A DNA stretch of 64,000 nt, from contig OY253668.1 in assembly GCA_958009085.1 (NCBI GenBank), forward strand, positions 868,001-932,000, read 5' to 3'. Positions 20,897 to 64,000 of this stretch are shown one piece after another (position 1 is the stretch's first letter; every line of letters starts with the position of its first letter). The notes beneath the pieces were generated by a model that was not told the origin of the DNA, searched no databases, and was given only the letters and a program-made list of their open reading frames with translations. Position numbers and translations under genes: made by a program. The stretch is from Protoeuglena noctilucae. Taxonomy: Eukaryota.

Positions 20897-23800
20897 TCAA
20901 GGCCGCAAAATCCTCGTGACAGTCTTGCTGCTAGTCCCCGGCTCCGTCTGGCCGTGCAGCGCGACGACCGCCCCGCCCGTGAAGAGCCCCCTGTCCCGGG
21001 CGAACTGGACGGCCCGGCCCAGGAGGGCGTCGATGTTGCTGATGTCCCCCAGGTCGTCCACCAGGAGCGCGTACTGCCCGAACGACAGGTTGACTTGCCG
21101 GCTGAGGACGGCGTTGTTGGTGACGATGATGCAGGGCACGCGGGGGCGGTACTTGGACACGAGGCGGGCCGCCTCGCCGTGCTCGTCCACCACCACGGCC
21201 AGGGAGGCGTGCACGTCGACCGTGGCCTCTGCGATGGTGGTCGCGGCCGACTCGAGCGTGCTGAGCGGCCGGGACGTGAAGTCCTCGATGAAGATGCCCA
21301 TGGCGTAGTAGTTGCACGCCCCCTCCGTGTTGCGCACGATGGCCGCCGCCGTCTCCACCACCTCGACGGGGAAGTCGCCCACGGCCGTCTCACTGGCGAG
21401 GAGGATGGAGTCGGCGCCGTCCACAACACAGTTGGCCACGTCCGTCATCTCGGCCCGCGTCGGCCGCGGGTTGCTCGCCATCGAGTGGAGCAACTGCCGC
21501 GCGATCGTCACGGGCTTGCCCGCGACGTTCGCCTTGGTCGTCAGCACCTTGGAGGCGAGCAGCACCTTCTCGGGCGTCACTTCCAGCCCCAGCGCACCGC
21601 GCGCCACGACGATACCGTCCGCCGCAGCCAGGATCTCGTCGATGTGCTTGATGCCGTCGACCGACTCGATCTTGGCGATGACGCGCGCCGAGTCGCACCC
21701 GATCTCGGCCAGCGTCTCGCGCACGTCCTCGATGACGCGTGCCGACCCCACGCGTGACACCTCCACGAAGTCGGGCTGCACGTCGCGCACGAACGTCACG
21801 TCGGAGCTCTCCTTGAAGTTGAAGTACCCCGACTGCGCGATGCGGCCGAGGACGCCGAAGGCCTTCTTGGAGCCCAGCTTGGCCGTGTTGATGGCCTTGC
21901 ACTGGTACTCGGCGTCCGACAGGCGCGCCACCACGCGGAAGGCGATGATGCCGTCGCTGATCATGAGCACGTCGCCCTTGTCGAAGGTCGGCGCGAGCTG
22001 CCACCACGCCACCCCGACGCGCGCGTCCTTGCCGTCGGACCACCCCGTGAAGAGCTCGGGCGCCCGCTGCACCTCGTCGTGCGAGCGGAAGTAGACCGTC
22101 ACGTCCTGGTCGGCCTTGATGTCGATCTTCTTGGCGGGCGAGCCGTCGGCGTTGACCACGTCGCACGTGTACATGCTCGGCGCCGTCAGCGACACGGTCA
22201 GGGGCACCGGGCGCCCCGCGCGCCGCGACGCCTCGGCCAGGGCCGCAGCCAGCTGCCGATTGTCGTCGTGCGACCCGTGCGACAGGTTGATGCGGGCCAC
22301 GTCCATCCCCGCATCGATGGCCCGCTGCAGCACCTCCGGCGTCCGCATGGCCGGCCCCAGGGTCACCACCAGCTTGGTCTTGCGTGCCGGCGCGTCCGGC
22401 TTAATGAGCATGTCCAGGTCGATGTTGACGGCGCGCAACGAGAGCGTCTTGGACACGATCTGCTTGTCCGTGTACTTGGCCGGCTGCGCCACGCCGAGCT
22501 CGTTGAAGTTGAGCCGGCCCGGCGCCATCGTGATGTAGAGCTGCCGCTCTGGGTTGACCTCCGTGTCGGCCGCCGCCTTGTCGAAGCCCAGGACGAGCGT
22601 CGACGTGATGACGATGACCTCCTTGCCCGAGACGCACAGCTTGTCGCGGACGGCCATGTTCATGGCCAGCCACACCTGCTGCTGCACCTCCTTGGCGTTC
22701 TTGGGCAGCGCCGCAATCACGTACGGGTAGACGCCGTAGAGCGTCTGGCACCGGCGCGCCAGGCCCGGGTCCGTGGTCAGCACCATGACCGGGACCGAGG
22801 GGCGGTACTTGGCCAGCATGGACGGCATCTTGCCGGCCTCCGAGAAGACCACGATGAGGCCCGGAACGATCTCCGTCGCCGTCTTGACCGCGCACGACGC
22901 CACGGCCTCCACCGTCCCCACCGGCTTGGCCGTGTACTCGTGGATGAACTCCCAGTTCTGGTAGTGGTTGATGCCGATCTCGGCGGACGTCACGATGCGG
23001 CTCATGACGGCCACGGTGGCGTCCGGGAAGTCGCCATTGGCCGTCTCACCCGACAGCATGACGGCGTCGACGCCGTCGAAGACCGCAGACGCCACGTCCG
23101 TCATCTCGGCGCGCGTCGGGAAGGGGTTGCTGATCATCGACTCGAGCATCTGGGTCGCGCAGATGACGAACTTGCCCGCGATGTTGGCCTTGGTAATCAT
23201 CCACTTCTGCGCCAGGGGGACCTTCTCCACCGGGATCTCCATGCCCAGGTCGCCCCGCGCCACCATAATGCCGTCCGTCTCGGCCAGGATGTCGTCGTAG
23301 TTGCGCAGTCCCTCGAAGTTCTCGATCTTGGAGATGATCTTGATCTTGTGCCCCCCCGCCTCGTCCAGCACGCGCCGGATGAAGCGCACGTCCTCGGCCG
23401 ACTGCACGAACGACGCGGCCACGTAGTCCATCTTGTGCTTGCACGCGAAGTTCTGCAGGTCGTCGATGTCCTTGTCCATCAGCACCGGCAGGTCGACCTT
23501 GACCCCCGGCAGGTTGCAGTTCTTGCGCTGCCCCAGCTCCTTCGTGTTGAGCACGCGCCCCCGGAGCTCCGTCTCGCTCAGGATCTCCACCACCTCGATC
23601 GACACCGTCCCGTCCGCCAGCAGGATCTTGTTCCCCGGCTTGACCGACTGGCACAGCTTGCTGTACGACAGCCCAATGCGCGTCTCCTTGTCCGTCTTGT
23701 ACCCCTCGAACTGCGTGTACCGGTCGCCCACCGCCTCCACCACGATGTCCTGCCCCGCCTCCAGCGTGATGTTCTTGCCCTCGCGCAGCATGGCCGTGCG

Positions 23801-26800
23801 GATCTCCGGCCCCTTCGTGTCCAGCAGCGTCGCGGCGTGGCTGCCCCGGCGCATCGTGGCCTCACGGAAGCGGGCGAGGACCTGCCCGTGACCCTCGTGG
23901 TCCCCGTGGGAGAAGTTGAACCGGGCGACGTTGAGGCCGGCATCGATGAGCTTGCCGAGGTTCTCGCTCGACCAGCACGCGGGGCCGAGCGTGCAGATGA
24001 TCTTGGTCTTGCGGCGGACGAAGGCGAACTTGTTGATGTCCAGGAGCGTGTCGAGGCCGATCTTGGTGGAGCGGTAGAACATGGTGCGCGGGCCGGGGTA
24101 GGCGGACGTGGTGAGCTTGTCCACCACGCCGCCGGGGTGGCCCACCACGATGCAGCGCATGGTGAGGCGCTGGTCCTCGACGCGCTGCTGCCCCGGGCGG
24201 CGGTGGACGACGACGACCTGGTCGCCCTCCTGGAGGGACAGCAGGCCCATGTTGTTGCAATACTGGACGAGGAGGGGCAGGGCGTCGTTGATGCGCTGGA
24301 AGCGCTGCCCGGGCAGGAAGAGGCCGCACTGCCCGAAGCGGGAGCGGCACGACGCCGCCAGGGTCGGGTTGTCCGTCATGACGAAGACGGGCTGCCGGGG
24401 GCGGTACTCGGATACGAGGCCGGCGGCGCGCCCGGACGAGGTGAGGACGAGGATGGCGCGGGCCTTGATGTCGATGGCCGTCTGCACGGCCGAGTTGCAG
24501 ATGGACTCGGCGTCCGACATGGGCTTGGGGGTGCGGTTGCGGATGAACTTGAAGAGCCGCTGCGTCTCCACCAGCTGCTCCGCGTTCTGCATGATGGCCG
24601 CCATCGTCGACACCGCCGCGTCCGGGAAGTCGCCGTTCGCCGTCTCGCCCGACAGCATGACGGCGTCCACCCCGTCCAGCACGGCGTTGGCCACGTCGGT
24701 CATCTCGGCGCGCGTGGGCCGGGGGTTGCCGATCATCGACTCGAGCATCTGGGTCGCGCAGACGACGAACTTGCCCACCAGCTGGCACTTGGTGATCATC
24801 CACTTCTGCGCCAGAGGGACCTTCTCGGGCGAGATCTCCATGCCCAGGTCGCCCCGCGCCACCATGATGCCGTCCGTCTCACGAAGGATGTCATCAAAGT
24901 TCTGCGACGGCGACGGGTGCGATGCGCTCGTCAGCACAGGATCGCAGATGCCGCTGAAGACAGCCTTACCGCCGACAGCACTTCCGCGCCACGCATCGGC
25001 GGGCACGCACCTTGAGGCCCTCCGAGTTCTCGATCTTGGAGATAATGCGGATTTGCTCTCCGCCAGCCTCGTCCAGCACGCGCCGGATGAAGCGCACGTC
25101 CTCGGCCGACTGCACGAACGACGCGGCCACGTAGTCCATCTTGTGCTTGCACGCGAAGTTCTGCAGGTCGTCGATGTCCTTGTCCATCAGCACCGGCAGG
25201 TCGACCTTGACCCCCGGCAGGTTGCAGTTCTTGCGCTGCCCCAGCTCCTTCGTGTTGAGCACGCGCCCCCGGAGCTCCGTCTCGCTCAGGATCTCCACCA
25301 CCTCGATCGACACCGTCCCGTCCGCCAGCAGGATCTTGTTCCCCGGCTTGACCGACTGGCACAGCTTGCTGTACGACAGCCCAATGCGCGTCTCCTTGTC
25401 CGTCTTGTACCCCTCGAACTGCGTGTACCGGTCGCCCACCGCCTCCACCACGATGTCCTGCCCCGCCTCCAGCGTGATGTTCTTGCCCTCGCGCAGCATG
25501 GCCGTGCGGATCTCCGGCCCCTTCGTGTCCAGCAGCGTCGCCCAGGACGGCTTGCACGGCAGCAGCTTGGAGTCCTTGAGCTTCTGTGCCTTGCGCTCGC
25601 TGGCGTTGCGGAAGCGCTCCAGCACCTTGAGGTGCCCGTCGTGGTCCCCGTGGGAGAAGTTGAAGCGCACGATGTCGAGGCCGGCGTCGAGTAACTTCTC
25701 GATCTTGTCCTCGTCCCACGACGCGGGGCCGATGGTGCAGACGATCTTGGTCGCCCGAGGGCGGTGCACGGGCTTGTTGATCAGGTCGAGGTTCGTGCGC
25801 GTCGACCGCAGGGACACGGTGCCCGGGCGAATCACCTGCACGCAGCCACACGGGCACGAGGGGCTCGGCGCTGGCGACGGGGCTGCAACGCGGGGGCGGC
25901 GCTCATATGGGGCCAGGCCCTCGGCAAGGAAGGAACCCACAGCGGCAGCCCTCACCGCTGGTGCGCCGGAGGACATGGTGAGGCGGGCGGCCGACGCCAG
26001 GGCGTTCTGGAGCTTGCCCACTCCGACGACCGTGGTTGACACGACCGGGTCCTCCTCGGCCCACAGCTGGCCGTGCCCCGTCACGACGATCGCCTTGACG
26101 ATGCCCGGCTTGAGGTTGTACATCTTCTGCACGTGCGCCACGGCAGCCTGCGCACGGCGAGACCGGCACCGTCACGCTCGAGGAGTCCGGGGCGCGTGGA
26201 CGTCCCCCTCTACCGCCCTGGAAGTGTCCCTGGCGCCCCCCGCCCTTGCGCCTTACGCTTGCGAGCCCTCACCTCAGCGAGGCCCTCCGCATCGGGGCGG
26301 TCCCACATGAGAGGGAACTGGGCAAAGCAGCCCGAGGTCTGGCGGAAGACGATGTCGCTGTTGGTGGCCACGACGACGGGGCACGGGGGGCGGTACTTGG
26401 ACACCAGCGCGGAGGCGTGGCCGGTGCTCGAGGCCACCACGATGACGGCGCTGAGGGGGCTGGCGGCGTCCGTCATAGCCGCCGTGTCCATGAAGTCGAT
26501 GGCCGTGTTCGAGACGGTAGAGAGCAGGGCTTCCGCCTGCAGGAAGTGGGTGGGCAGCAAGGGCGACCTTCAGGCCCAGGGGCGACCCGCTCGCCTGCCA
26601 GGCCGCGCAGGTGAGAGCCTGCGCCCACTCTCTCCGCCCGCGCGCCGCACCTCAGGCATGGCAAGGGTCCCGCCGAGCGTGTTCCAGAAGCGGAGGAAGC
26701 TGTATTGCTGCTGGACGTCCACGCCGACCTCGGCGTCGCGGACGATGCCGGCCATGGTGGCCACCGCGATGGCGGGGAACTCCCCGTTCGCCGTCTCGCC

Positions 26801-43300: not shown

Positions 43301-46300
43301 GCGTTGCCGGGACATCGAGCTGGTGCAGCATCGCCTCTATGGCCTCACGTGCTTCCACGTCCACCGCACGCACCCAGGCAATGTCCCCGACTCCTGCAGT
43401 GGGCTCCCTTCCAGGGGCAAACGTGTGCATCAACAGCTCCTCGGTTGCTGCACGGGACACTGTGCGATGCATCTCCTCCCTCGCGCCTCCAAGCGAGGAC
43501 TTGACGGCCTTGAGATACGCCTCCCGGTCCATCAAACCCAAAATTTTCTGCGAGATACCCAAGAACTTCCAGAGTAAAAGAGTAAGAGACGCGTGGTACA
43601 CGCGCTAGCTGATGCACTGCCTAAGGCGCACTTGCAGCACGCTTCACCTCGCCCGCGTGGCCCAGGACGCCCTTCACCAGGGAAGTAATTGCGAGAGCTG
43701 ATAGAAGCGCTGGGTTGCCCCCGAGCAGGATGTCCGTGCCCCGGCCAGCCATGTTCGTGGCGATAGTGACGGAGCCCGGCCGCCCAGCCTGCGCCACCAC
43801 TGAGGCCTCCACGGCAGCGAGCTCGGGGCGCGCGTTGAGCACCTTGTGATCAATGCCACGCTGGAGCAACACATGGCTGAGAGCCTCGCTCTGCTCTATC
43901 GAGCCTGTGCCGATCTGCAGAAAGGGGAGCGCGGCTGGCATAGCTCAGCCAACGGCCAACAATACACCGTGCGGGGCGGCAAGCAGCCGGCGCCCCACCA
44001 GGATGGGCCGGCGCGCATGGTTCGCGTCTCCCTCGCCCACGTCCTCCTCCCACACGCGCCAAATCAAATCGGCCTGCAGAGAAAACATGCCCCTCGTGCC
44101 CCGTCGCTTCAATCACCTACCGGTCCCCTCCAGCTGCCATCTCCTCAAGCACTTACCACAAACATGTTGCGCGCATCCTGATTGACGAACCAAAAGGGCG
44201 TGAGGTCCCCGCGCCTGCTCTGCTTGTTCGGGGGCACCGCCACCACGGGGAGGCGGTAGACGTCCCAGAACTCCTCTTGCTCCGTCATCGCTGTCCCTGT
44301 CATGCCCGCCAGGCGATCGTAATATCGGAAGAGCGTCTGGTAGGTGCACGTCGCGATCGTGGCGTACTCGGCCTGGCGATCGAGACCCTCCACCGCCTGC
44401 AAGCGGCGCCAGCCGTCGAATCGTCCGTCTCGTATCAGCCAAACATGAAAACATAGTCACGCTGGCAATAAGTCGCATGTTTCTTCCAGGAACGCACCTC
44501 GATTGCCGTGTGCAGACTCTGGCGTAGCCGCGTCTGTTCCTGGCGCCGACCTGTCAGCTGGTCCACCAGCACCACCTTCCCGTCCATCACCGTGTAGTCC
44601 ACGTCTGCGGTTCGCCACGGTGGCCAGGAAGATTGCGAGCGAATGCATCAGGGTCAGATCCTCACCCCCGGATGAACAGCCTCTGCTCTGCGGCAAGCAT
44701 GGCTGGAGATCCCACCTCGACGGTAGGCGTGGAGGGCAGTGAGCACTGCCACGATGTAGGGCCCGAGAATAACGTCAGAGGCCTCTGGGGTGTCGATGCC
44801 CTCCCAAATCTTGACCCCGAGCTCACGCTCGCACGCAAGCGTCCCCATCTCCGTCAGACTGTGGGTAGGGAAGGCTAACCATCGAAGTTCAGAAGTGAGG
44901 GGCACATCGGCTCCGTCCCTCCATGCCATCCCTCACAGCTCGGCCTGCCTCGCACCATGCGGACTTGAACAGCTCCTCCACGACAAAGTGCAGGCCGGGC
45001 TGCAGCTCTCGCGCGGCACGTAAAGCCATGTCGAACGCCGCGTTGTTGGGCACCGGGGATCTGCACGCAATATTCGCCGGTGGTGTCGGGCCGTTGAACA
45101 CAGGACGCTGCGGGCCGGCTCATACGGGGCTAGTGGCGCATTTGCCCAGCGCCGCACCTGGGGCTGCTGATGATGAGTGGCTGGGAAGCAAGATCGATGA
45201 GCACCGAGTCCACCTCGTCGATGATGGCGAAGTGGGGACTTCGCGAGTTGACGTTGCCAAAGCGATTGACGGCGATGCGGGATCGCAGGAAGTCAAAGGC
45301 AAGGCCTTGCGCTGCGACCAGGCAGGACGGATCGGTCTCGCGAAACACAAGGCAAGGGAACGGCGAGCTGGCGAACGCTGGGTTCCGACCCCGACCGACC
45401 TGTGGCGTAAACGACGTCTCGCCCGTACACCTCCTGCTTCTCCGCGCTGGTCATGCTCTCCGTGACACACCCGACCGTCAGTCCGAGAAACTTGAATATC
45501 TTGCCCATCGTGTGAGCGTCTCGCTCCGCCAGGTACTCGTTCACTGCAGCCGCGGACATGGGCCCCGTCAGTGCCGGTGCCGCGGCCGGCAGCCATGGGC
45601 CCTGGGCCCGGCGAGGGTGCGCGCCACCCACCCGTGACGACATGCACACCGCGGCCTGACAGGGCGTTGAGATAGGCAGGACAGGTCGCCAACAGGGTTT
45701 TGCCCTCCCCCGTGCCCATCTCGACCACCAAGCCCCGGTGGAGTGCGACCCCGCCGGCGAGCTGCACGCGATAATGGGACATGCCAAGAATCCTGCGAGA
45801 CACCTGCGACGGACAAGGACAAAGAGGGGCCCTCTTCCTTGGGGCTGACGCAGGCAAATGGCGCGCATTTAGAGCCATGTACGCAGTGGCTGGCACGAGG
45901 CTAAGGCACGTGCTTGGCCGACTGCGGGCGAGCAACACATCATTCGCAACATGTCCGTCACCTCTCGCACCACCGCAAACGCCTCCACGAGGACCCGGTC
46001 GAGCTCCCATCCGTCCCGGAGGCGCTGCCGAAACATGTCCGTTTTCGCGCGAAGCTCCGCGTCGCTCAGCACCTGCACCTGCTGCTCCAGCTCCAGCACA
46101 TCGTCTGCCGTCGCAAGGCACTCGCGGATGGTCCTCTCGTACTCCTGCAGGTTGGGGAGGCTCAGACACTGAGCAGGTCCAGGCCCGCAAAAGCGCATCT
46201 GGACGCGCGGCATCCCGCGGCGTACTGGCACCGCACCCGAGGCCTTTCGCAGAGTTTCCTCTTGTCCGCGATCCACTGCTCGACCCAGGGCTCTTCACGT

Positions 46301-46542
46301 TTGCGCCGCGGCCGTCCCGGATGATGTCGCGCAGAGGCGTGCAACGCCAGCGACGGTGTCCCGTCCAGCGTGGAGTCGCCAGGGACCGACGTAGCGCCAC
46401 GACGGGCGCAATGGCCCGCGCGCCACCTCCACGACCCTGCCGGCCTCGGCGCACGTTCCAGCAGCCGGCAGCCGGGCCGATGGGCGGGGCCGATGCCAGC
46501 ACGATGTGGCCATTGAGGAGCCCAGACTCGCGCTGCGGACAT
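40374..46542 (-). CDS. SECA: Plastid preprotein translocase ATPase SecA, divergent and long (SECA2-like); multi-exon
   Basis: [92 protein letters not shown] and [13 protein letters not shown], followed by a long non-SecA C-terminal exon (40374-41831). Assignment to the SECA2 paralogue is an inference. Confidence 0.88.
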
Positions 46543-51325: not shown

Positions 51326-53817
51326 ATGGGTCCTGCGAGGTCCGAGGGCCCTCCCGAGCCGAGCGGATCCGACCATGACTGCCAGAGCACCCATGTAGCG
51401 GACGTCCGGCCGCGCACCACAGGTGAGGACGCAAAGGGCCCCGGTGCTGGGCACAAGCTGGGCTGCCGCGCTACCTGCGCTGCACGCGCCACGGGTCTGG
51501 GGTCCTGCGGCAATTTGTTTGGCTGTCGTTTCGATTGGTGACGGCTGAGCTGATGCAGGAAGCAAACGGCGACTGAGAAGTCCCTTTCTTGAATTCCCGC
51601 AGGCATATGCCGTGTCCGCCGCGGCTTGCTGGGCTTCTACCGGGAGCAGCTTGTCGTGCTGAAGGGGGGGGACTTGCAGCTGTTCCCCCTCGGAGCGGAC
51701 CCGCACGAGGTGCAGGCGGAGGCCGTCGTCCAGCTTTCGGGCGCATACATCAAGTGAGACTTGCTGGGCAGAGATGCCACGGTGACGGAAGTCCCGCGCC
51801 TCCGGCCTTCGCCACTGAAGTGACCCGGCCATCGCCGCTGAAGTGACCCGTTGGATCCCCTCGTGCCGCAGGCCGGGAGGGCCCGGGTCGTTTGTCATCC
51901 GCGAGGGCGTTTCCAAGCGGGTGTCGTTCCGGTGCCCGCCTCACGAGCGCGACGAGTGGCTCGTGGCCCTGATGCACGTCGGGGGCCTCACCCGCCGCAT
52001 CGCCGACTTCTACACGCTGGGCAACGCCCTGGGGGAGGGCGCCACCTGCCGCGTCTTTGAGGCCACGTGCAAGGTACGTCCGGCCTCGCGCAACGCCGGC
52101 GTCAGCGGCGTGGGACGCTTTCAAGCCGCTTGCGTGCGAGTTGCGGCGCTGGACCCACACGACTGCTCCTGCCACCGCAGATCACGGGCAGGCGCGTGGC
52201 GATCAAGACGCGCCTCGACCCGTCCAGCTTCGACGCCCTCAAGGCGCTCCACAATGAGGTCAAGATGCTGGAGCTGTGCAACCGCTACCCGCACCCCGCC
52301 ATCCCCAAGGCCCTGGACTTCTTCTACGACCCCCAGGGGGGCCTCCACCTCGTCACCGAGCTCATGGACGGCGGGGAGCTCTTCACGCGCATCGTGCAGA
52401 GGGACCACCTGAGCGAGGCCGAGGCCCGCAGCGTCTTCCGCCAGGTGGTGGAGGGCGTGGCGCACCTCCACAGCCTCTCCATCGCGCACCGGGACCTCAA
52501 GCCGGAGAACCTCATGTTCGCGCACGACCCGGAGACGGGGGAGGAGGTCCTGAAGATCGTCGACTTCGACCTCGCGCGCCTCGACACGTCGGCAGCGTGG
52601 ACGGGCGACACGCCCTGCGGCACCCTGTCCTATATGGCGCCCGAGATCGTGTCCCGGCGCCGGTACTCCCAGGCGGTGGACATGTGGTCCCTGGGCTGCA
52701 TCCTGTACATCCTCCTCAGCGGGCGGAAGCCCTTCGGGGGTGCCACGGAGGAGGCGCGCAAGGAGAACATCAAGCGCGCCAAGGTCTGCCTGGCCCCGCA
52801 GCTGTTCGAGGGCGTCTCGGAGAGCGCCAAGGACCTCATCAAGGCTTTGCTCGTTAAGAACCCCGCTGACCGGCTTACGGCCAAGGTGACCCGCGCAGCG
52901 ACGCGTCTCAGGGCTCGCCAAGGCCGGGCGTTCCATTGGTTCGTTCGGCAGCGAGGCCCTGCTGGTTTCTCACCGCCTTTCCGCCTCCCGTGGCCCCAGG
53001 AGGTGCTCCGGCATCGGTGGCTGCAAGAGGGCCACGGGGCCATGTCGCGGTGGCTGCCCACGCCCCACATGCTCAAGGACGCGCTGTCCCCGGCGGCCCT
53101 TTTGGCGCTTCAGGACCGCAAGAACGGGGAGCACCACGCGGCCCGCAAGGATCTGTACAGGCGAGTGGCTGAGGAGCTGCGTGACTGGGGCGAACCGGGC
53201 GGTGAAACGCGTCGCCCTGGACAGCCGCCCACCGTCCGTTCGCCGCTATCCGCAGCAACCGCGGCACCGGGAATATCGGCACGGACGCGGTGCGCCAGGC
53301 CGACGATCCGCACCCGGACGACCACCGGGTGGGGCCGGGTGGCTCCCCCGCCACGCTGCTCAACCTCTTCGGCCTCGTCCCCCTCGTGACGGGCTACATG
53401 GGCACGACGGACAACGGCGCGGCGGCGCACCTGACAGCGGGCCAGGAGGCGGGCCACGTGGCCCCGCGGGCCTCGGCGTCGGGCAGCGACGGCGCCAGCA
53501 GCTCGGGGTCGGGGCAGGCGGGCGGGCGCAGCCGGCGCCGCTTCCACCTCCACGCGCTGTTCAGCAAGGGCCGCAGCAGCACCGACTCGGGGCATGCGTC
53601 CAAAGCCGCGTCGCCCAAGGCGGACGGGGACGCGCCGGGCCACCGCTATGTGGTCGAGGGCAGGCAGCACCAGCTGGACGCCTTCAAGATGCGCTGCGAG
53701 CTGGGCGCCGGGCCCCCCGTCGTGACGTCGCACCGGATGTCGGTGGACAGGGGGGGCCCGGCCATGTCACCCAGCCCCTCGACGCATGCCCTCATGGCCA
53801 TGGCCTGCGTCCTGTGA
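51326..53817 (+). CDS. PH-like domain plus CAMK-group Ser/Thr protein kinase with a DFD motif
   Basis: PH-like GICRVRRGLLGFYREQLVVLKGG...VSFRCPPHERDEWLVAL, then kinase motifs LGEGATCRV, VAIK, HRDLKPEN, DFD, CGTLSYMAPE and DMWSLG. Confidence 0.88.
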
Positions 53818-55245: not shown

Positions 55246-58200
55246 GAACGATGAACATTCGCTGGCCGCCAGCGCGGAGGCTGCCTGCTTCTCGCGGCCA
55301 GGCTCTGTGCGCTCTAGTGGCTCGGCCGGATTTGTCGCTGAGCCGCGCTCCCCAGCGCTGGACCCTGCGGCCGGCGGAGGCGGGTTTGGCGCTGGAGCTG
55401 GCCTTAACGGGTTTGGCAGCGGGCTGGAATTCCCTGCGCTGGGCGATGGTCCTGGCTTCTCCGAGTCCACCCTCCCCGACAAGGTGACGCGGGGGTGGTT
55501 CAGTTGGTTAGATGGGAGCGGTGGGATTGCGTTGTGCGTCACGCGAGGGGCACGGTCGCTGTCATGGCGCGATGTCTTCCGTGTGGGGGTACCTGGCGGG
55601 CGACTTTGCAACTTCGCCCTGATGACCCTCACTCCACGCCCTAATGAGCATGCAGGCCGCTGGCGCCCGCCACAACCTGTCTTTCAAGCGCGAAGCACAG
55701 AATCCAGAGAGGGGGCAACTGTGGGGACGGGACAAGTGAGGGTTGGCTTTTGGAGAGGCGGCAAGTTGGGCTTCAAGTGTGGCATGTTCCTAGAAAACGG
55801 GGTGCCAGCACAGCGCGGCAGCCATCTACCGTGCACGCGGGCGCGTGAGGAGGAGCGTCTATAACCCCAACTTGCTCCTGATGCTGACTGTGTGCAGTGT
55901 GGCAAGTCGGCGGATCTATTTGGGTTTGTATTCCACCGAGGACGCAGCAGATGACGGCATTCGCCTGTTTAACAAGGGTGAGTGCCATGTCGGGCTGGGT
56001 GCGGCGCGGCGTGGTGTGGCACAGCGTCATAACCTGACCGACCTTGGTGTGCGACAACCACCATCCCCTGAGAGTAGGCCTCCTACTCTCATCCCACACA
56101 GTGCTGGTTGTGGGGGAGGCGGGCGGGGATCAGCAAGCGGAGGTGAGTGCCGCGTTTGCCAACGTGTTCTCAAGGGCCTGCCCGGAGCTGCGGGGGGCTG
56201 GGCCGTTGGGGATGCATGCCGGTGTTGCTTCGCTAGGCTCATGCTCTTGGCTCGGTAGTATGACGCCCATGTTGGGCGGAGCGGGAGCGGTCGCTGAAGG
56301 AGGTGGGGTTGGGCAAGATGGCCATCGAGCAGGAGAAAAGCAGGTTCATGGAGAATGCGGTGTTCGACGTCTTCCACCCGACTTCCGTTCGCCGGAGGAA
56401 GGTAAGGCGGTATTGTGCTGTGGGAAGCAGGCCGAGCTAAATGTGGGGATGGGCGGTATGGGCTGTGACGCTGCATTGCATATAACTTGTGGACTGTTGC
56501 CTGCAATGTTTGGGGCACGGGAGGTAAGCGATGACGGTAATAAGCAGAAAATTGTAATATTTTTGGGATTTGCAATAATAGGTGACTATGTAGGTTCTAC
56601 AATTTTGTGATGAAAAAAGCCAGCTTTATAGCTTCAAAACCAAACATCGCACCCTATTTCCTATTATTTAATATCTCTATAATTGTTCTATTATCCTTGA
56701 AAATCAAGCAAATCTAGCACATGACTCGAGGTGCCTCCGAGCTCTACCTGTATCCTCGAGTTGGTCTTCGCAGAATGAGCTGACTCTTGACGGCGAGATC
56801 TTTGGGGACGACGACTGCATATACGGGAATGAATACGGGATTTTTGATGGCCAAGGCGGGATCTTGGGGGGCGACGACGAGAGTGACCCCGAGTACGTGC
56901 CAGATGAACCTGGGGATCTTTGTTTTGATCTTCAGAACCCCCACTGCGAGCGCTTCTGGGACCCCGACGGGAAGCAGGTCAGGACCCCCGAAAGAACGCA
57001 TCTCACCAACGCCAACAACATGATCGACGTATGGGAGGCAAGTGCACGGCCATGCCATGTCACTATGGCATGGTATTTGACCTCGCTTGATAATCTGTGG
57101 GCACCCTGCATATTCATGCTTGGCAATACCCGTACTGAGCAGTAATTTCTGCCCCTCGTTATGTCGTTACTGATGATAATCTGTCGCCCTTGCGCCGCCA
57201 CTTCACACCCCTGTCCATGTCCCAACCCTTCCACCCATCCACCCGACGTGTTCAGCGCTGGGCCAGCGCGTCCTGACATGCTTACCTTTGTGTCCTTGAT
57301 TGCAGAGCAACGGGGGAGTTCTGCCCGGGCAGAAAGTCAGATTCTTTGGCGCGGCTGCGGGCCTCTTCCACACTCTGTGCGTTGAGGCTCACGGAAACAC
57401 GCAGCTCCAGAACCAGCTTATTACAGCTATCCCAAGGAGTCCGCCTTTCACAGACATCAAGGTCTTCGAGGATCTACGCGACATCCTCCACAAGCACGGC
57501 ACCTCCCCCCTCGTCTAGGCCATACTGGTTACCCACATGGTCCTGCCGGTCCTTGCTCACGAGTTGGACCGGGCCAGGTACTACAAGGGTGAGCCTGATG
57601 AAGGGGAGGACGGAAACTATTTCTGTTTCATGGAGAGGCCGAATGAGGCTACATTTGTGCTTCGGAAGAGCAAGACTGGTGACGAAGGCGTGTACCACCT
57701 CACGGAGGCAGCGCGTCTGATCGTTGTTCGCTGCCATGCCAAGCTTAAGGGGGACCGGCACTATGTGTTCGGCAAGTGCTCCTTGGGGGATGCTCTCGCC
57801 GCCGTCAACGTGGCATTCGACCGCATTCGGCATGCCATCGTGACGTTCCTCTTGCCACTTTGCCCCACCTACGACGTGATGCTCCACGTCTGCCAATATA
57901 TGCGCCACTTCTACACGGCGCTGCTGTACTACTGCCACACGGACGTGCAGCTGACGGGGCATGGGTTCGGCGGTGGGTTCCGCAACGGTGTCCGGTTGTT
58001 GTCGATGGAGGACAATGTCGGGGCACGGCTTATGGAGGACCTGGGCCTGGGCACGCTGGGTAGGGAAGGGGATGAGCGGAGGGTGGGGGTGAAGGTCGGG
58101 GAGAGGGCGACGGATGGGACAGTCGGGCTGGGACGATGCAGGCGCGAGGGGCCGACCAAGAGGGATCTGCAGCGGCACGCAAAGAACGGTCGGCAGTGCT

Positions 58201-59027
58201 ACCGTCGGATAAAGCAAATCAAGGCCCTTGACGCAGAGAATAAGGAGCTTCGACTCCACGTGCAGGTGGGGCCAAGCTCTCTTTGGCGCGCCGCGCGGCG
58301 CCATTTGGGACAATCGCTGCTTGTGCGTCGGCGCGGCGAGCATGGCTCTGCGGGGGGTCACTTTGCCGGTAAATTGTGCACGATTGCAGGAGCTGCAGCA
58401 ACAGCTGGCGATGCAGGAGGCCAGGCTGAAGGAGGTGGTACCGCTAGGGGAGGATGAGGAGGGGGTGGGGGGATGTGGGACCACATGTTGTTGCGTGACG
58501 GGGAGCCGGATGGTGATATGCTGTTGGGGAAGAGCTGGCCGGGGCAGGTGAGGGACATGGATGAAGATATGGTGATGGAGAGGAGCGTCAACTGGCGTGA
58601 TGGAGAGGATGATTATGACATGCTGTGGGAGGGGAGCGTGCCGTGGGTGGATAGGGGTAGCGTGCTGTTGCAGGATGGGGAGGGTGTGGAGGGAGAGGGG
58701 GATGGGGAGGGGCAGCATGGGGCAGCGGGGGCCGCAGTGGGGACGGGGGCGGATGGGGCTGTGGGCAACACATGGATGGGCAACGCTGTGTCTTGGGGCA
58801 CCCTCGACATGCCCCCCGCGCATCCCGTCACCTCGGCGTTGCTGCAACGCATGGCCGCGTTGCAGCAGCAACCCTCGGCCTTCTCCCGGCCCGCATCGCT
58901 GCTGCGGTCCCCCGCGGCGCCGTCCCCGCGCCCCAACCTGGGGGTGGAGGATGGGGCAGGGGCTGCGGTGGGGACGGGGCCGGATGGCGGTGCGGGGATG
59001 CCCGCGGGCCTCAGGCGGCTGCGGTGA
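55235..59027 (+). pseudogene. Multi-exon orphan gene or pseudogene with an AP2-like motif and an in-frame TAG
   Basis: Exons bounded by splice signals (55235-55483, about 55898-55977 RRIYLGLYSTEDAA, 56774-57038, 57306 onward). An in-frame TAG at 57516-57518 is followed by the same open frame (57537-58457). GC content and codon bias are lower than in the flanking genes. Confidence 0.5.
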
Positions 59028-60017
59028 GGGGCGAGGATTTGTGGTTGGCGGGGATGGTAGTGGCTGTTACTTGGCGGAGTGCAGGCACCCCTCCAATGCC
59101 ATGCCACCCGTGGCGTGCTTTGCCATCGATGCCGCCGTAAGCTGCCAGCTGATGGCTGGCTTCGCTGCTACCTCTCATTCAGACAAATGTCTTGCTCTCA
59201 GGAAGCGCGACCTCCCTGTGGACTTGATACAGCGCCGCATCTGGGTGCTGCAACCGGCGGACCGCACGTGGTACGAGGCTTGAAGAGTGGGTTCGAATGG
59301 CGATGGCAGTGGCGCGTAGCCTCACCAATGAACTCAGGACAAACTCCTTTCCCTTTCTCGTTTTATGTCTCTTGACAGCGACCCGTCTCCTTCACGCTAT
59401 ACACGTACCTTCCCTCCTCTCCCTTCAGTGGCACCAGGGACCTCACCTCGGCCGTTGGCAAAGGTGGTGTGGCTGTCTCCACCGTGCCACCCAGCGCCGA
59501 CCCCCCCCGGGGCCACGTATGGCACCCGGGGCGGCCAAAGGAGCAGCGCGGGGGACGCGGGCAAGCCAATAGAGGTGATTGGCACACCCATGCACCCGCA
59601 CCCCATGCCTGCTACCCAAGCACGAAACCCGCGTTTTTATTGCTCAGCTGTCTGAATGCTGATCCCGTTTGTGCCTCTTTTCCTGCAGAGAGGGCGGTGG
59701 GGCAGGATGGGGAGGTGGGTGAGGGTGGGGAGGGGGAGGGCAGGCTTTGTTGGGGCACGAAACGGAGACGAACGGGGTTGGCGGATGGGGCAGTGGGGGC
59801 TGCGGTGGGGAAGGGTGGGGCTGTGGTGGCTGCGGTGGGGGCGGATGTGGCAGTGGACAATGCATTGATGGGCAACGCTGTCCCCTGTTGCACCCACGTC
59901 GCACCCCCCGCGCGCCTCGACACCTCGGCACTGCTGGCCGCAGCCCAGCATCGAGTCTTGGCCTTTCCCCAGCCAGCGCCTTTGCTGCAGCCGCCCGCGG
60001 TGCCGTCCCCGCGCCCC
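58668..60017 (+). repeat. Diverged direct duplication of a G-rich segment of about 270-320 bp (about 58668-58935 and 59700-60017)
   Basis: Both copies carry, in order, GCAGGATGGGGAGG, ATGGGCAACGCTGT, CACCTCGGC..TGCTG and GCCGTCCCCGCGCCCC. Confidence 0.75.
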
Positions 60018-60487
60018 CTCTTCCTGTGAGAGGGCCGACATTTCAGGGCAGTGACGGTGCCAACACGCTCTTGGGGGGTAGGCAGGGTGGGGCGGTGGGC
60101 GCGACTCGGCGCGCCGGCCGGCGGGGGGATAGCGCCCGGGCTGCCGGTGCTGACTGAGTGGGTTGATGGGTGAGGCTGCACATCTATGCAAGGGGGCACC
60201 CTTTGCTGCTCTGACGCTGCCCCATGCGCCCCGCTGTCCCATCCTCTCGCGCACCCTCACCCCTTGCTCCCAGGCGCCCTTGTACAACGTTGCACATGGC
60301 AAGGACCCCTGGCGTCGAGAGCTTGCTGGGGGTTCCTGGTGCTTGGTCCGGGGTGGAGGTGGGGTGCTGGGGGTGGCTTTCTTGACTCAGGCAGTGTCTG
60401 GCAGGTGGTGCCGGCCGCATTCACGCGCGACCGACTCGTCGACGTCTCTGATTCAACTTTTGGGCTATTCGAGTCCACGTCGCCAAG

Positions 60488-63227
60488 ATGCTGATTCTTT
60501 TGGGCCAGTCGTGGGCGACCGACGAGTCGTCGCCCTCGGAGATCTCCCCCGATGCTTGGACGGATCCCATATTCGGTGGGTCAGCTGCGCGCGCGCGTGG
60601 GGGTCGGTCTGGGGACGACCGCGACCGGCAGCATTTTAACCGTCGGCCGGTCGGCCGCACCCTCTGCGAGCGCAGAAGACCGCGCCATGGAGCTGCTGTC
60701 GCTGCTCAAATCAAAGTCGACCGACGAGCTGGGAGAGGCGATGCGCCTCGGCCCCCGAGAGAGCCAAACTGAGTTCGAGTACTACCAGAGCGGTTTTGAC
60801 AAGGCTCCGCACGTCCCCGCCATCCACCTCTTCTCGGGCGACGGCATGAAGGCCAACAAGGCCTACCGGGGCCTGCGGTGAGGCCTGCGGGGACGGGGTG
60901 AGTGACATCGACAGGCACAGACCTTGCTGCCAGCCTCACGCCCGCTCTGGCGCCCGCAGGGCCGACGAGCTGGACATGGAGGACATCGAGTGGGCCCAGG
61001 ACCACCTGTGCATCATGTCTGGCATGTACGGGCTGCTCCGCCCGCTCGACACCGCCAAGCGCCACAAGCTGACGATGGACATGAAGGCGAGCTCGAGGCC
61101 TGGGACATGGACCTCAGAGCCCGTCGACGCGTGCGCTCCTCGCACGATCTCCTCGCACGCGCCTCCGCCCCGCGCAGGTCTCGGGCCCGGCTGGCGAGAG
61201 CCTTCCCCAGTTCTGGGGCCAGGCCATTGCCCAGGAGATGAACGAGATGCTGGAGGCCCACGACCCGGACTCGCAGTTCATCGTCAACTGCCTGGAAGAG
61301 CGCGACACGGAGGCCCTCGATATGGAGGCCCTGCGCTTCCCAGGTGGGCCTGGCGGGCGGCGGCCGCGGCTTGCCCGGGACGCAAGTGCAGGTTTGCCGT
61401 TTGGCTTCGCTGCGCCGCGACGCTGCTCTCTTGTGCTGCCCTCGCGCAGTCGTGGACATGGACTTCCCGGGCTCCCTTGGCCAGCAGCAGCTCTACAAGG
61501 GCGAGCTCGCGCGCTTCGCCATTGAGAACCAGGCGAGGACCCTCGGGGCGGCACCACCTGCTTGCCTGCCTGCGGGGGCGGCTTTGCGATCCCCGCGTTT
61601 GCAGCGTCCGTTTGCGGTTTCCACCGTGCTGGCCCCGCTGTGGGGCAGCCTGACTTACATGTGCCACCCCTCCCTGCTTGGCTGTGCTGTTGGGTCGCCA
61701 TCTCGTCAACCTCTGGCACCCACGGCCCTGACGTGATGCAGTGCGAGACGTACGACGATCTCTCTGGCTTCTTCCGGGAGGGCACGTTCGAGTTCGACCC
61801 GGACCTGTCAGACGAGAGCACCCTCGTCTTCGTGCCGCCCCACCAGCACGCAGGTGAGACGGTGCATGGCACGGGCATTTCGCCTCGCGCCTCTGCCCCT
61901 GCACTGAACCAGTTGCGCTGCTCATCTTCGTGGGAGGTGTGACTGGGCATCCCGCGCCCTCGCCCCGCGCGCAGGCGGCCGCTCCAGGCGCCGTGCGGCC
62001 CCCCGCAAGCTGTCGGAGGACGCGATGCTCACGGAGGAGACGGAGCACCCCGACGAGGGGGAGGAGTACGCGACGCACCCGCGCTTCCGGGGCACGGACC
62101 CGCGCCTGCATGCCGCTGGCAAGAAGGGCGCTGCGCGCAGCAGCCAGTCGCGTGGTGCCGTGACCCCGGAGCGGCGGGAGCAGCTGCGGGCGGCAGGCCG
62201 CAAGGGCGCCGCGACGCGCAAGCGCCAGGCGGCTGAGCGTCGCGAGGCGGAGCGGCACAAGAGGATGCGCGGGGGGGAGGAGTTCGGCGAGGAGGGGGCC
62301 TACGAGGACGAGGAGGAGGGGGAGCCTGGGGACGAGGAGGAGCTCGGGGAGGAGGCGTACGAGGAGCCTCAGCGGGGGCGCACCACGCACGAGAAACTGC
62401 ACCTGGCCGGCAAGAAGGGCGCGGCGCGCAGCAGCCAGTCGCAGGGCCGCATCCCGGCCGAGCGCATGGAGGTCTTCCGCCAGGCTGGGCGCAAGGGCGG
62501 CCACCGCGTGCAGGAGCTCGCGCATGCCGGGCGCGCGGGCGCAGGCGGGCAGGCCGCCGACACCTACGAGCGGCTACGCCAGGCCGGCAAGAAGGGCGCG
62601 GCGCGCAGCAGCCAGTCGCAGGGCCGCATCCCGCCCGAGCGCATGGAGGTCTTCCGCCAGGCTGGGCGCAAGGGCGGCCACCGCGTGCAGGAGCTCGCGC
62701 ATGCCGTGCGCGCGGGCGCAGGCGGACAGGCCGCCGACACCTATGAGCGGCTGCGCCTAGCTGGCAAGAGGGGTGCGGAGCTCAGCAGCCAGTCGCAGGG
62801 CCGCATCCCGCCCGAGCGCATGGAGGTCTTCCGCCAGGCCGGGCGGAAGGGCGGCCTGACGACCCAGCGCCGCGCCCACCTGGGCCGGGACGCGGCGGAG
62901 GGCGAGGACGTGGGCGACGTGCCGCAGGAGGAGCTGGAGCGCGCGCAGGAGACCTACCGCCGCGTGCAGCAGGGCCAGCGAAAGGGTGGGCTTGCCCGGG
63001 GCGGCCGGGGCTCCTCGGGTGCTCGGGCGTTGACCGGTGCTCGCACGCGGCGCGACGAGGACACGCGGCTGGTGGACGAGGAGCTGCGGATCGAGCAGGA
63101 GGACTACGAGTACGAGCCGGAGGAGGAGGACGAGGACGAGGAGGAGGAGGACATGGAGGGCCTGGAGGAGGGCATGCACACCCGCAGTGGCGCACACTTC
63201 GGGGGGCGCGAGGTGGCAGCCCACTGA
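60488..63227 (+). CDS. yaaA: YaaA (UPF0246) peroxide-stress protein homologue fused to a KGG-repeat hydrophilic tail
   Basis: MLILL..., PAIHLFSG...AYRGL, WAQDHLCIMSGMYGLLRPLD, FWG, FIVNC, KGELARFAIEN and FEFDPDLSDESTLVFV follow the YaaA order. Intron 61854-61974 joins in frame to the 62025-63227 ORF. Confidence 0.85.
62405..62860 (+). repeat. Coding tandem repeat with a 177-nt (59-aa) period, about 2.5 copies, carrying AGKKGA / AGRKGG motifs
   Basis: Units start at 62405, 62582 and 62759; a more diverged partial unit lies near 62113-62215. Confidence 0.9.
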
Positions 63228-64000
63228 GCATGGGAAGCAACGCGCCCAGGGCGCCCAGGGCAGCTCGCCGCTGCCTGTAAGCGAACCTTTTCAGCGGACC
63301 TTTTCTAGACCTCCCCGTCTTGCGCTGCGCGCATTTCACCTGCCTGCACCTCACGCACCCTGAACTGTCACGTTGCAGCTTCTGCCTGCCACGCCCGCCG
63401 CCGCTCGCTGCCGCGTCTAGCGCGCTCTCAGCAGTTGAAGGGCACGCGTTGTAGTCATTCCGGTTCAAGCCAACCGGACATGCCCAGCGAGGGACCACGA
63501 CTCCCGGCTGTGATACGGGCCACGAGGCGGAGCCTCTCGTGAAACATGCCAACCAGCATCGAGGCAGGCTGCGGCGGAAACCCCAGCCATCCAGGAAACG
63601 CATGCGAGGGCCGGAACCGGCGAACGGGGATGTCATGTCAGGGCTGCCATATATAGGCGGTGGTGGCAGCCCAGGCATTCAGCAGTCCAAAACACTGACG
63701 CGAGTCAGCAGGAGGCAGGCACGGCCTCAGGACAAATACGAGCCCGGCCACGGAACAAGGGAGGGAGTTGACACCCAGCGGGAGTGAAGCGGCCGAGGTG
63801 TCCGTGGGAAAGAGCGCGGTCTGAACCAAGACCAACGGCAAAAGGGGCAACGCTAGGTGCTCTACCGGAGGCAATGAGGCGCTAAGCTAAGGAGATGGCT
63901 AGAAGGTCAGGATGAGGGGATGGGCAAAGGATAGACCGGATGCGGATCAGTCCTGCGCAGGATGGAGGGGATTCTAATGCACACCTGTGCTGAAAGGGGT

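Follow-up and report, generated by a model that had tools for sequence, protein, structure and literature searches.

A derived YaaA domain spliced to a lineage-specific repeat tail in a GC-rich marine alga

In a 64,000-nucleotide (nt) stretch of the Protoeuglena noctilucae genome (contig OY253668.1 of assembly GCA_958009085.1, positions 868,001 to 932,000 of the forward strand; hereafter the window), a domain of the YaaA family runs up to an intron with no stop codon, and beyond the intron the frame continues into a long, charged and repetitive sequence. This raises the question of whether the two halves form one protein and whether the second half is a stress module of the KGG or late embryogenesis abundant (LEA) type, as had been proposed from the sequence alone. 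We found that a GC-rich marine alga expresses this locus as one nuclear gene, whose mRNA joins a derived YaaA/DUF328 domain (amino acids (aa) 1-259) to a lineage-specific tail of 417 aa. The gene lies on the + strand at 60488-63227 and has seven exons, with a coding sequence of 2031 nt that specifies 676 aa followed by TGA; the tail is encoded by a single exon. The model was assembled from the three + frames of 60400-63300, connected wherever splice sites fit the consensus, and has six introns, four with a GT donor and two with a GC donor, all ending in CAG. The window is GC-rich eukaryotic DNA (0.56-0.72 per 2-kb step). On re-reading the sequence, the coordinates of the sequence-only reading, its G/GTGAGA donor and CGCGCAG acceptor at the last intron and its ATG at 62025 were all correct, and this ATG falls within exon 7, in a frame that is already open.

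We mapped three RNA runs from marine metatranscriptomes of one study (X1, X2 and X3) and one DNA-like run (X5) on 60200-63500. Sampled words of the stretch were present at 30-53% in four RNA runs and at 97% in four 'organism A' runs. A single 697-nt X1 contig maps to 61176-61340, 61739-61848 and 61970-62257, joining exons 4, 5, 6 and 7, and its joints correspond to introns 4 (106 nt), 5 (209 nt, GC..AG) and 6 (121 nt, GT..AG) within the stated slack. This contig contains the in-frame splice from YaaA to tail across 61854-61974, just as the sequence-only reading had predicted. The intron 2 joint is found in a second X1 contig and the intron 3 joint in both X1 and X2; RNA thus shows five of the six introns of the model spliced, and all five of the testable ones are precise. 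Depth in X1 is 0.55 in the intron 6 bin (61865-61975) compared to 8.8-10.3 in the adjoining exons. A 27.7-kb X5 contig is unspliced and continuous across 60200-62434, so a DNA variant in this run does not account for the spliced form. We are highly confident that the gene anatomy and the YaaA-tail fusion are real. Run X3 contributes unspliced contigs at 60627-60786 (intron 1) and 61910-62178 (from within intron 6) and an upstream piece at 60200-70; since it contains intron 1 and upstream sequence as well, these pieces look like pre-mRNA or DNA carry-over, and we rejected 61910-62178 as an internal start.

The identity of the first 259 residues is established by several profiles. Pfam H2O2_YaaD (PF03883, cut-off 29.6 bits) matches three exons in colinear order, with 23.4 bits for exon 2 (profile positions 30-84), 44.5 bits for exon 3 (90-131) and 13.3 bits for exon 4 (136-173); exons 5 and 6 gave no match to this model when taken singly. 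A local profile of 258 positions, built from 22 bacterial YaaA proteins, scored the spliced 259-aa part at 143.5 bits, and since its positions 17-256 align on residues 20-257, the domain is complete, its end coinciding exactly with the exon 6 boundary. In addition, exon 3 matched PDB entry 5caj (E 5e-6, sequence search of PDB) and the NCBIfam YaaA models, whose whole-protein cut-offs are out of reach for a single exon. When exon 3 was searched among longer proteins, all 24 candidates passed, one being the window's own unspliced open reading frame (ORF), P0003, and 23 being of bacterial-type length; that collection held no spliced gene model of the YaaA-tail protein. Exon 4 as query found no relative in scans of JGI metagenomes.

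YaaA/DUF328 proteins are widespread in bacteria and rare in eukaryotes, and their molecular function is still unclear, according to the portion of PMC4834066 available to us. The same portion describes E. coli YaaA as co-purifying with double-stranded DNA (dsDNA) and as having a basic apical depression, and the accessible part of PMC8843374 places its helix-hairpin-helix at residues 35-66 and its cleft at 209-213. This OxyR-regulated, DNA-binding peroxide-stress protein (PF03883, UPF0246, PDB 5CAJ) shares with the algal domain a colinear whole-domain match, a nearly identical length (258 versus 259 aa for the alga), the MLIL start, the motifs GD.Y.GL, AQ.H, SG.YG.LRPLD and FWG, and N169. The algal protein differs from it in having six introns, the 417-aa tail and a net charge of -30, and in having lost residues of the SPAK, helix-hairpin-helix, YRLEMG and cleft motifs.

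As aligned, the algal domain is full length yet extremely derived. Of 84 columns conserved to at least 90% across the 22 bacterial proteins it keeps 46. A 14-row alignment, with E. coli YaaA and the eukaryote-type forms P0046, P0047 and P0049 among its rows, has 59 near-invariant columns, of which the alga keeps 32 (27 lost). The SPAK motif (E. coli S6-P7-A8-K9), unchanged in all 20 of the aligned bacterial sequences, is replaced at residues 6-9 by GQSW. The absence of this N-terminal motif had been noticed from the sequence alone and is confirmed here, as neither SP[ASTG]K nor another YaaA-like piece that could serve as an alternative exon occurs in the + frames of 56000-60700. The helix-hairpin-helix carries L56E, A57S, N60E and R63Y, YRLEMG has become HKLTMD (Y127H, R128K, E130T, G132D), and in the AK.AR motif of the cleft (E. 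coli 208-212) A208, K209 and A211 are missing and R212 is lysine. Further losses are R109C, Y144, R254P and A171, S172, E174 and Y175, where AS.EY reads LE.RD. The three eukaryote-type forms retain the motifs that the algal domain has lost.

The core still carries GD.Y.GL, WAQDH, SG.YG.LRPLD and FWG, and the YaaA fold is therefore probably kept. The algal domain has a net charge of -30 and an isoelectric point (pI) of 4.33, compared to net charges of -9 to +8 (median 0) for 44 other YaaA domains. From this charge and the loss of K9, R63, R109, K209 and R254 we infer that the ancestral basic nucleic-acid-binding surface was given up, and the charge argues against the ancestral mode of dsDNA binding. 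In a maximum likelihood tree of 45 domains (45 of 52 scanned proteins, the alga included, after rows with fewer than 200 profile positions were dropped), the algal terminal branch is the longest, at 6.19 versus a median of 0.25. Because of this branch length and the deviant composition we give the algal domain no fixed place in the tree and name no donor lineage.

The tail is of a different character. Glutamate (15.6%), arginine (15.1%), glycine (13.9%) and alanine (12.7%) make up 57% of it, and it is very hydrophilic, with a grand average of hydropathy (GRAVY) of -1.37 and a pI of 6.6. Its charge is arranged in blocks, with basic repeats of +2 to +7 per 30 aa and acidic tracts of -13 and -17. 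Tandem Repeats Finder (TRF) reported a 177-nt tandem unit at 62405-62856 (2.6 copies, 94% identity). Each 59-aa unit consists of two related half-units, ending AGKKGA and AGRKGG, and the tail holds 4.5 copies of the module between and around two poly-acidic tracts, with eight copies of AG[KR][KR]G[GA] and one GQRKGG in all. GC content at codon positions 1/2/3 is 0.81/0.53/0.92 in the tail and 0.65/0.38/0.89 in the YaaA exons, a resemblance that supports the tail reading frame.

The number of repeats varies between alleles. Public data hold two ORF-called alleles: P0001 (400 aa) has five residue differences, all inside the repeats, and P0002 (341 aa), which appears to come from the same organism or a near-identical strain, lacks exactly one 59-aa unit and has no mismatch otherwise. 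Given this allelic variation and the close similarity of units B and C (15 differences in 177 nt), the expansion is recent. Outside these alleles we found no relatives. Exhaustive phmmer with 222 aa of the repeat region against 1.84 billion representatives gave one match, P0002, and a search of 8000 scored candidates gave two, P0001 and P0002; the tail query found no relative in the JGI metagenome scans, and comparison by sequence with Pfam, NCBIfam and PDB gave no match at threshold. Pfam VG15 (PF25310), considered for the repeat region, was rejected at 18.6 bits, under its cut-off of 26. Judged by these searches, the tail is an orphan, specific to the lineage of this alga. AlphaFold2 run on the single sequence of the tail gave low-confidence helices (mean predicted local distance difference test score, pLDDT, 54.6; predicted template modelling score, pTM, 0.23), and the tail, having no confident predicted fold, is probably disordered.

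We asked whether the tail could nevertheless be the stress module that its motifs had suggested, in which case YaaA would handle peroxide or iron stress and a true KGG or group 1 LEA hydrophilin would shield macromolecules in water-deficit, osmotic or cold stress. B. subtilis GsiB is a KGG-repeat small stress protein, and with this class, which includes E. coli YciG and YmdF (PF10685), the tail shares a recurring AG(K/R)KGG, a glycine-rich and hydrophilic composition and probable disorder. However, the KGG unit is about 22 aa and that of the tail 59 aa, the flanks are unrelated, and the tail is not a small stand-alone protein. Group 1 LEA/Em proteins (PF00477) share a GRKGGL core, which we take to resemble the plant group 1 LEA 20-mer, and a hydrophilin-like composition. 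LEA_5 nevertheless gave no match at E <= 1 for the whole tail or at E <= 10 for its six pieces, units included. Pfam KGG (cut-off 20.4 bits) reached 7.3 and 8.0 bits in two of the six pieces, over profile positions 11-20 of 22 only, compared to 64.8 bits for E. coli YciG and 35-38 bits for each single E. coli repeat. BLASTP of the tail against YciG gave a best E of 0.16, and phmmer found no KGG or LEA protein.

Profile-profile comparison initially looks more favorable. With hhalign, nine motif-centred tail segments aligned to four E. coli KGG repeats with 82% probability and a score of 20.4, which none of 100 trials reached when all columns were shuffled. When the six core columns were kept and the flanks shuffled, however, the mean was 19.2 (sd 2.2) and 30 of 100 trials reached 20.4. 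Because flank shuffling leaves the score unchanged, the KGG likeness amounts to the hexapeptide AG(K/R)KG(G/A), and as every copy goes back to a single duplicated module, the motifs count as one coincidence or convergence and not as eight. The nearest ESM Atlas cluster to the tail is the LEA_5/KGG family, with a score of 0.77 that is under the tool's own reliability line. Hydrophilins, a physico-chemical class and not a homology family, are delimited in the accessible part of PMC4190154 by glycine above 6%, GRAVY below -1 and mean hydrophilicity above 1. The tail passes the first two thresholds and falls short of the third, with a Hopp-Woods mean of 0.83 on a scale that may differ from that paper's; the whole 676-aa protein has 11.1% glycine, a GRAVY of -1.03 and a Hopp-Woods mean of 0.58.

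The assignment of the tail to the KGG/LEA stress proteins, made in the sequence-only reading, is thus not upheld, and we consider it unlikely that the protein works as such a protectant. Hallmark residues of the family are missing from the YaaA module, and the organism occurs in marine plankton metatranscriptomes, where desiccation is no obvious stress. The composite oxidative and desiccation protectant proposed at the same time presupposes a working YaaA module, and the domain is strongly acidic and lacks about half of its near-invariant residues. With two of the three hydrophilin thresholds passed, the tail may still have a hydrophilin-like role. What the gene encodes is a member of the YaaA family whose hallmark motifs have degenerated and which bears a lineage-specific tail; a fusion of two stress modules is not demonstrated.

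Long YaaA proteins from other sources place this architecture in perspective. Among 8000 scored candidates, 28 proteins of 488-2000 aa contain YaaA at E <= 0.001; candidates were picked by shared words, by which fused forms can be missed, and within this selection none of the 28 carries PF10685 or PF00477. The combination of YaaA with KGG, which the sequence-only reading did not know from elsewhere, is likewise new to us: the top-ranked matches of the literature searched include no YaaA-KGG or YaaA-LEA protein, which is weak evidence of an unpublished architecture. Partners in the long proteins are the transporter domain PF01235, domains of DNA transactions (HRDC and RecQ parts, an EEP nuclease and zf-PARP), and NicO (Aphanomyces) and SH3 (Hondaea); the PF01235 cases are probable gene-calling fusions of neighbors, of the E. 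coli yaaJ-yaaA type. P0027, P0028, P0037, P0039 and P0049 each combine YaaA with HRDC/RecQ parts, an EEP nuclease or zf-PARP fingers; unless they are artefacts of gene calling, these proteins point to a DNA-repair role of the YaaA family. The closest analogue of the algal protein is P0049 (701 aa), in which YaaA is followed by a Lys/Glu-rich linker and two zf-PARP fingers. Like the alga, P0049 and P0046/P0047 (557-566 aa) have an N-terminal YaaA and then a long charged low-complexity extension. In contrast to the alga, they keep SP(A/T)K, the helix-hairpin-helix, YRL.MG and AK.ARG and have net charges of 0 to +3; their extensions are unrelated in sequence to the algal tail, and the alga has no zf-PARP.

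Because the basic surface of the YaaA domain is gone and basic residues now lie in the tail repeats, we favor a working model in which a repurposed acidic YaaA-fold module would carry a disordered polyampholyte tail that serves to bind polyanions or to scaffold other molecules. The fold would be kept as an acidic module with its ancestral basic surface abandoned, and the basic repeats would attach the tail to nucleic acid, chromatin or other polyanions. A link of YaaA to DNA is suggested by the co-purification of the E. coli protein with dsDNA, by its helix-hairpin-helix and by the DNA-transaction domains of other long forms. The nuclear-localisation-like stretch at 62217-62270, a regular-expression match, might assist the basic repeats, and the acidic blocks could modulate polyanion binding intramolecularly or bind basic partners or cations. 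We put this mechanism forward tentatively, and for the explanation as a whole, anatomy and mechanism together, we see about an even chance.

Several points weigh against this explanation. The intron 6 joint is one assembled contig from one run of one study. We infer exon 1 and intron 1 from homology and splice consensus, as X1 and X2 contigs are absent there and the first X1 contig starts only at the acceptor (60675). The candidate nuclear-localisation signal is a pattern match, and the ESM Atlas neighbor leans towards a hydrophilin. The argument from DNA transactions is weakened because some of the long YaaA forms may be gene-calling fusions. Finally, the loss of half of the conserved residues together with an orphan, variable-copy repeat also fits relaxed constraint.

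Under relaxed constraint, a YaaA of bacterial derivation would be decaying and the tail would be a recent, GC-driven low-complexity repeat, spliced but nearly or wholly neutral. The 27 lost near-invariant residues, the longest branch in the tree, the orphan status of the tail, its allelic variation in repeat number with closely similar units B and C, and its enrichment in the four residues that GC-rich codons predict all agree with this. Nonetheless, 676 codons have stayed open, whereas the genome's introns are not open, and every testable intron is precisely spliced. The three tail alleles (window, P0001 and P0002) contain no frameshift or stop, and the sole indel among them is one 59-aa unit. 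Within the YaaA domain it is chiefly surface and cleft motifs that were lost, with the core kept, and the charge shift to -30 is directional and not random. We regard neutral decay of the protein as improbable.

A further reading would combine an acidic, non-DNA-binding YaaA fold from bacteria with an independently evolved KGG-like hydrophilin tail, which would have arisen from GC-rich sequence by repeated duplication; the stress motif would be convergent, and the two parts would form one stress-induced protectant or a cation or polyanion buffer. We think this rather unlikely. In yet another reading, which we consider very improbable, YaaA would end in a retained intron 6 (in-frame stop near 61940) and the tail would be made from ATG 62025, by an internal start or from a transcript of its own, the spliced form being minor read-through. 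In its favor are the X3 contig that begins within intron 6, the ORF callers that begin P0001 and P0002 at this ATG and the frequent intron retention reported for the GC-rich alga Emiliania huxleyi in the accessible part of PMC4028052. Against it are the low intron 6 depth in X1, with the joint on its main contig, and the other unspliced sequence in X3. Moreover, only about 85 nt separate the intron stop from ATG 62025, leaving no room for a promoter and untranslated regions, and intron 6 is in phase, with the exon 7 frame open upstream of the ATG.

Coordinates of the gene and of the blocks within its tail are collected in the table.

Table. Exons, introns and tail elements of the YaaA-tail gene (positions in the window)
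Feature	Position	Strand	Description and evidence
Exon 1	60488-60575	+	ATG 60488, 29 codons + 1 nt; MLILL, then GQSW in place of SPAK; placed by homology to YaaA N-terminus and GTGGGT donor
Intron 1	60576-60675	+	100 nt, GT..AG; splice consensus and homology, no RNA joint
Exon 2	60676-60877	+	YaaA profile positions 30-84; helix-hairpin-helix region, conserved residues replaced; 23.4 bits; X1 contig 60675-60876
Intron 2	60878-60959	+	82 nt, GT..AG; X1 joint
Exon 3	60960-61086	+	Best conserved YaaA core, WAQDH...SGMYGLLRPLD; 44.5 bits, NCBIfam YaaA models, PDB 5caj
Intron 3	61087-61177	+	91 nt, GC..AG, donor AAG/GCGAGC; X1 and X2 joints
Exon 4	61178-61343	+	YaaA profile positions 136-173; profile matches and RNA
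Intron 4	61344-61449	+	106 nt, GT..AG; X1 joint
Exon 5	61450-61532	+	AKxARG cleft region; reads LY--KGE, residues missing
Intron 5	61533-61741	+	209 nt, GC..AG, donor CAG/GCGAGG; X1 joint
Exon 6	61742-61853	+	C-terminal end of YaaA domain, profile to 256/258; ends ...CAC GCA G, then GTGAGA
Intron 6	61854-61974	+	121 nt, GT..AG, phase 1, ends CGCGCAG; separates YaaA domain and tail; joint in X1 contig 2, shorter side 110 nt
Exon 7	61975-63227	+	417-aa tail including junction Gly; TGA 63225-63227; mostly covered by RNA contigs
First, diverged module copy (AGKKGAARSSQS...AGRKGA)	62094-62207	+	tblastn of unit C against window: 68% identity, 38 aa, E 2e-10
Basic stretch, candidate bipartite nuclear-localisation pattern	62217-62270	+	KR, 10 residues, HKRMR; regular expression only
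Acidic tract 1	62274-62366	+	Net -13 in 30-aa window; TRF short periods
Three tandem 59-aa units	62379-62909	+	Two AG(K/R)(K/R)G(G/A) motifs each; TRF period 177
Half module ending GQRKGG, then RGG-like stretch	62934-63005	+	The one GQRKGG of the tail
Acidic tract 2	63057-63173	+	Net -16 to -17 in 30-aa windows
3' untranslated region	63228 to at least 63480	+	RNA contigs X1 63160-63480, X2 63160-63441

The anatomy of this gene bears on gene prediction in such genomes. Two of its six introns have RNA-confirmed GC donors (GCGAG), which predictors restricted to GT would miss, mis-modelling the gene, and ORF-based public gene calls split it into two unrelated pieces, P0001 and P0003. For some GC-rich marine algae, GC donors and intron retention are described as common in the portions of PMC4028052 and bioRxiv 10.1101/2024.10.30.620910 available to us, which give GC-AG at 56% of 241 curated junctions in Emiliania huxleyi (PMC4028052) and GC-AG introns at 14-17% in two pelagophytes (bioRxiv 10.1101/2024.10.30.620910). 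The GC content of the window, its GC-AG introns and the marine runs fit GC-rich algae of the kind treated in these two papers. When the window was searched for repeated, introner-like copies of the introns, each of the six matched itself only.

Although the result is confined to one lineage and its general importance is modest, the two halves are informative in different ways. A YaaA domain that has kept its core and lost its SPAK, helix-hairpin-helix and cleft residues could help to identify the residues on which the ancestral activity depends and the other uses that the fold allows. The tail is a clean case of a variable-copy orphan repeat grafted onto an old domain via a phase-matched intron, and it bears on the origin of new disordered regions in GC-rich algal genomes.

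Elsewhere in the window, Rfam and tRNA scans gave zero matches each. On the - strand, a single ORF of 1369 aa at 20900-25006 contains three stretches that match the pyruvate kinase barrel (833 bits) and three that match the C-terminal domain; it has no introns and looks like a pyruvate kinase with several domains in tandem, or like several copies fused together. An ORF at 45123-46502 on the same strand carries a partial SecA DEAD-like domain (83 bits) and probably represents a single exon of a SecA gene in the nucleus. Also on the - strand, an ORF at 1329-2402 with a CFA20 (cilia/flagella-associated) domain suggests a flagellate organism, and a protein kinase ORF lies at 52067-53386 on the + strand. 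Closer to the YaaA-tail gene, GC content dips to 0.557 at 56001-58000, compared to 0.61-0.72 elsewhere in the window, and a G-rich, GGTGGGG-type low-complexity stretch occupies 59800-59860, about 600 nt upstream of the gene's ATG.

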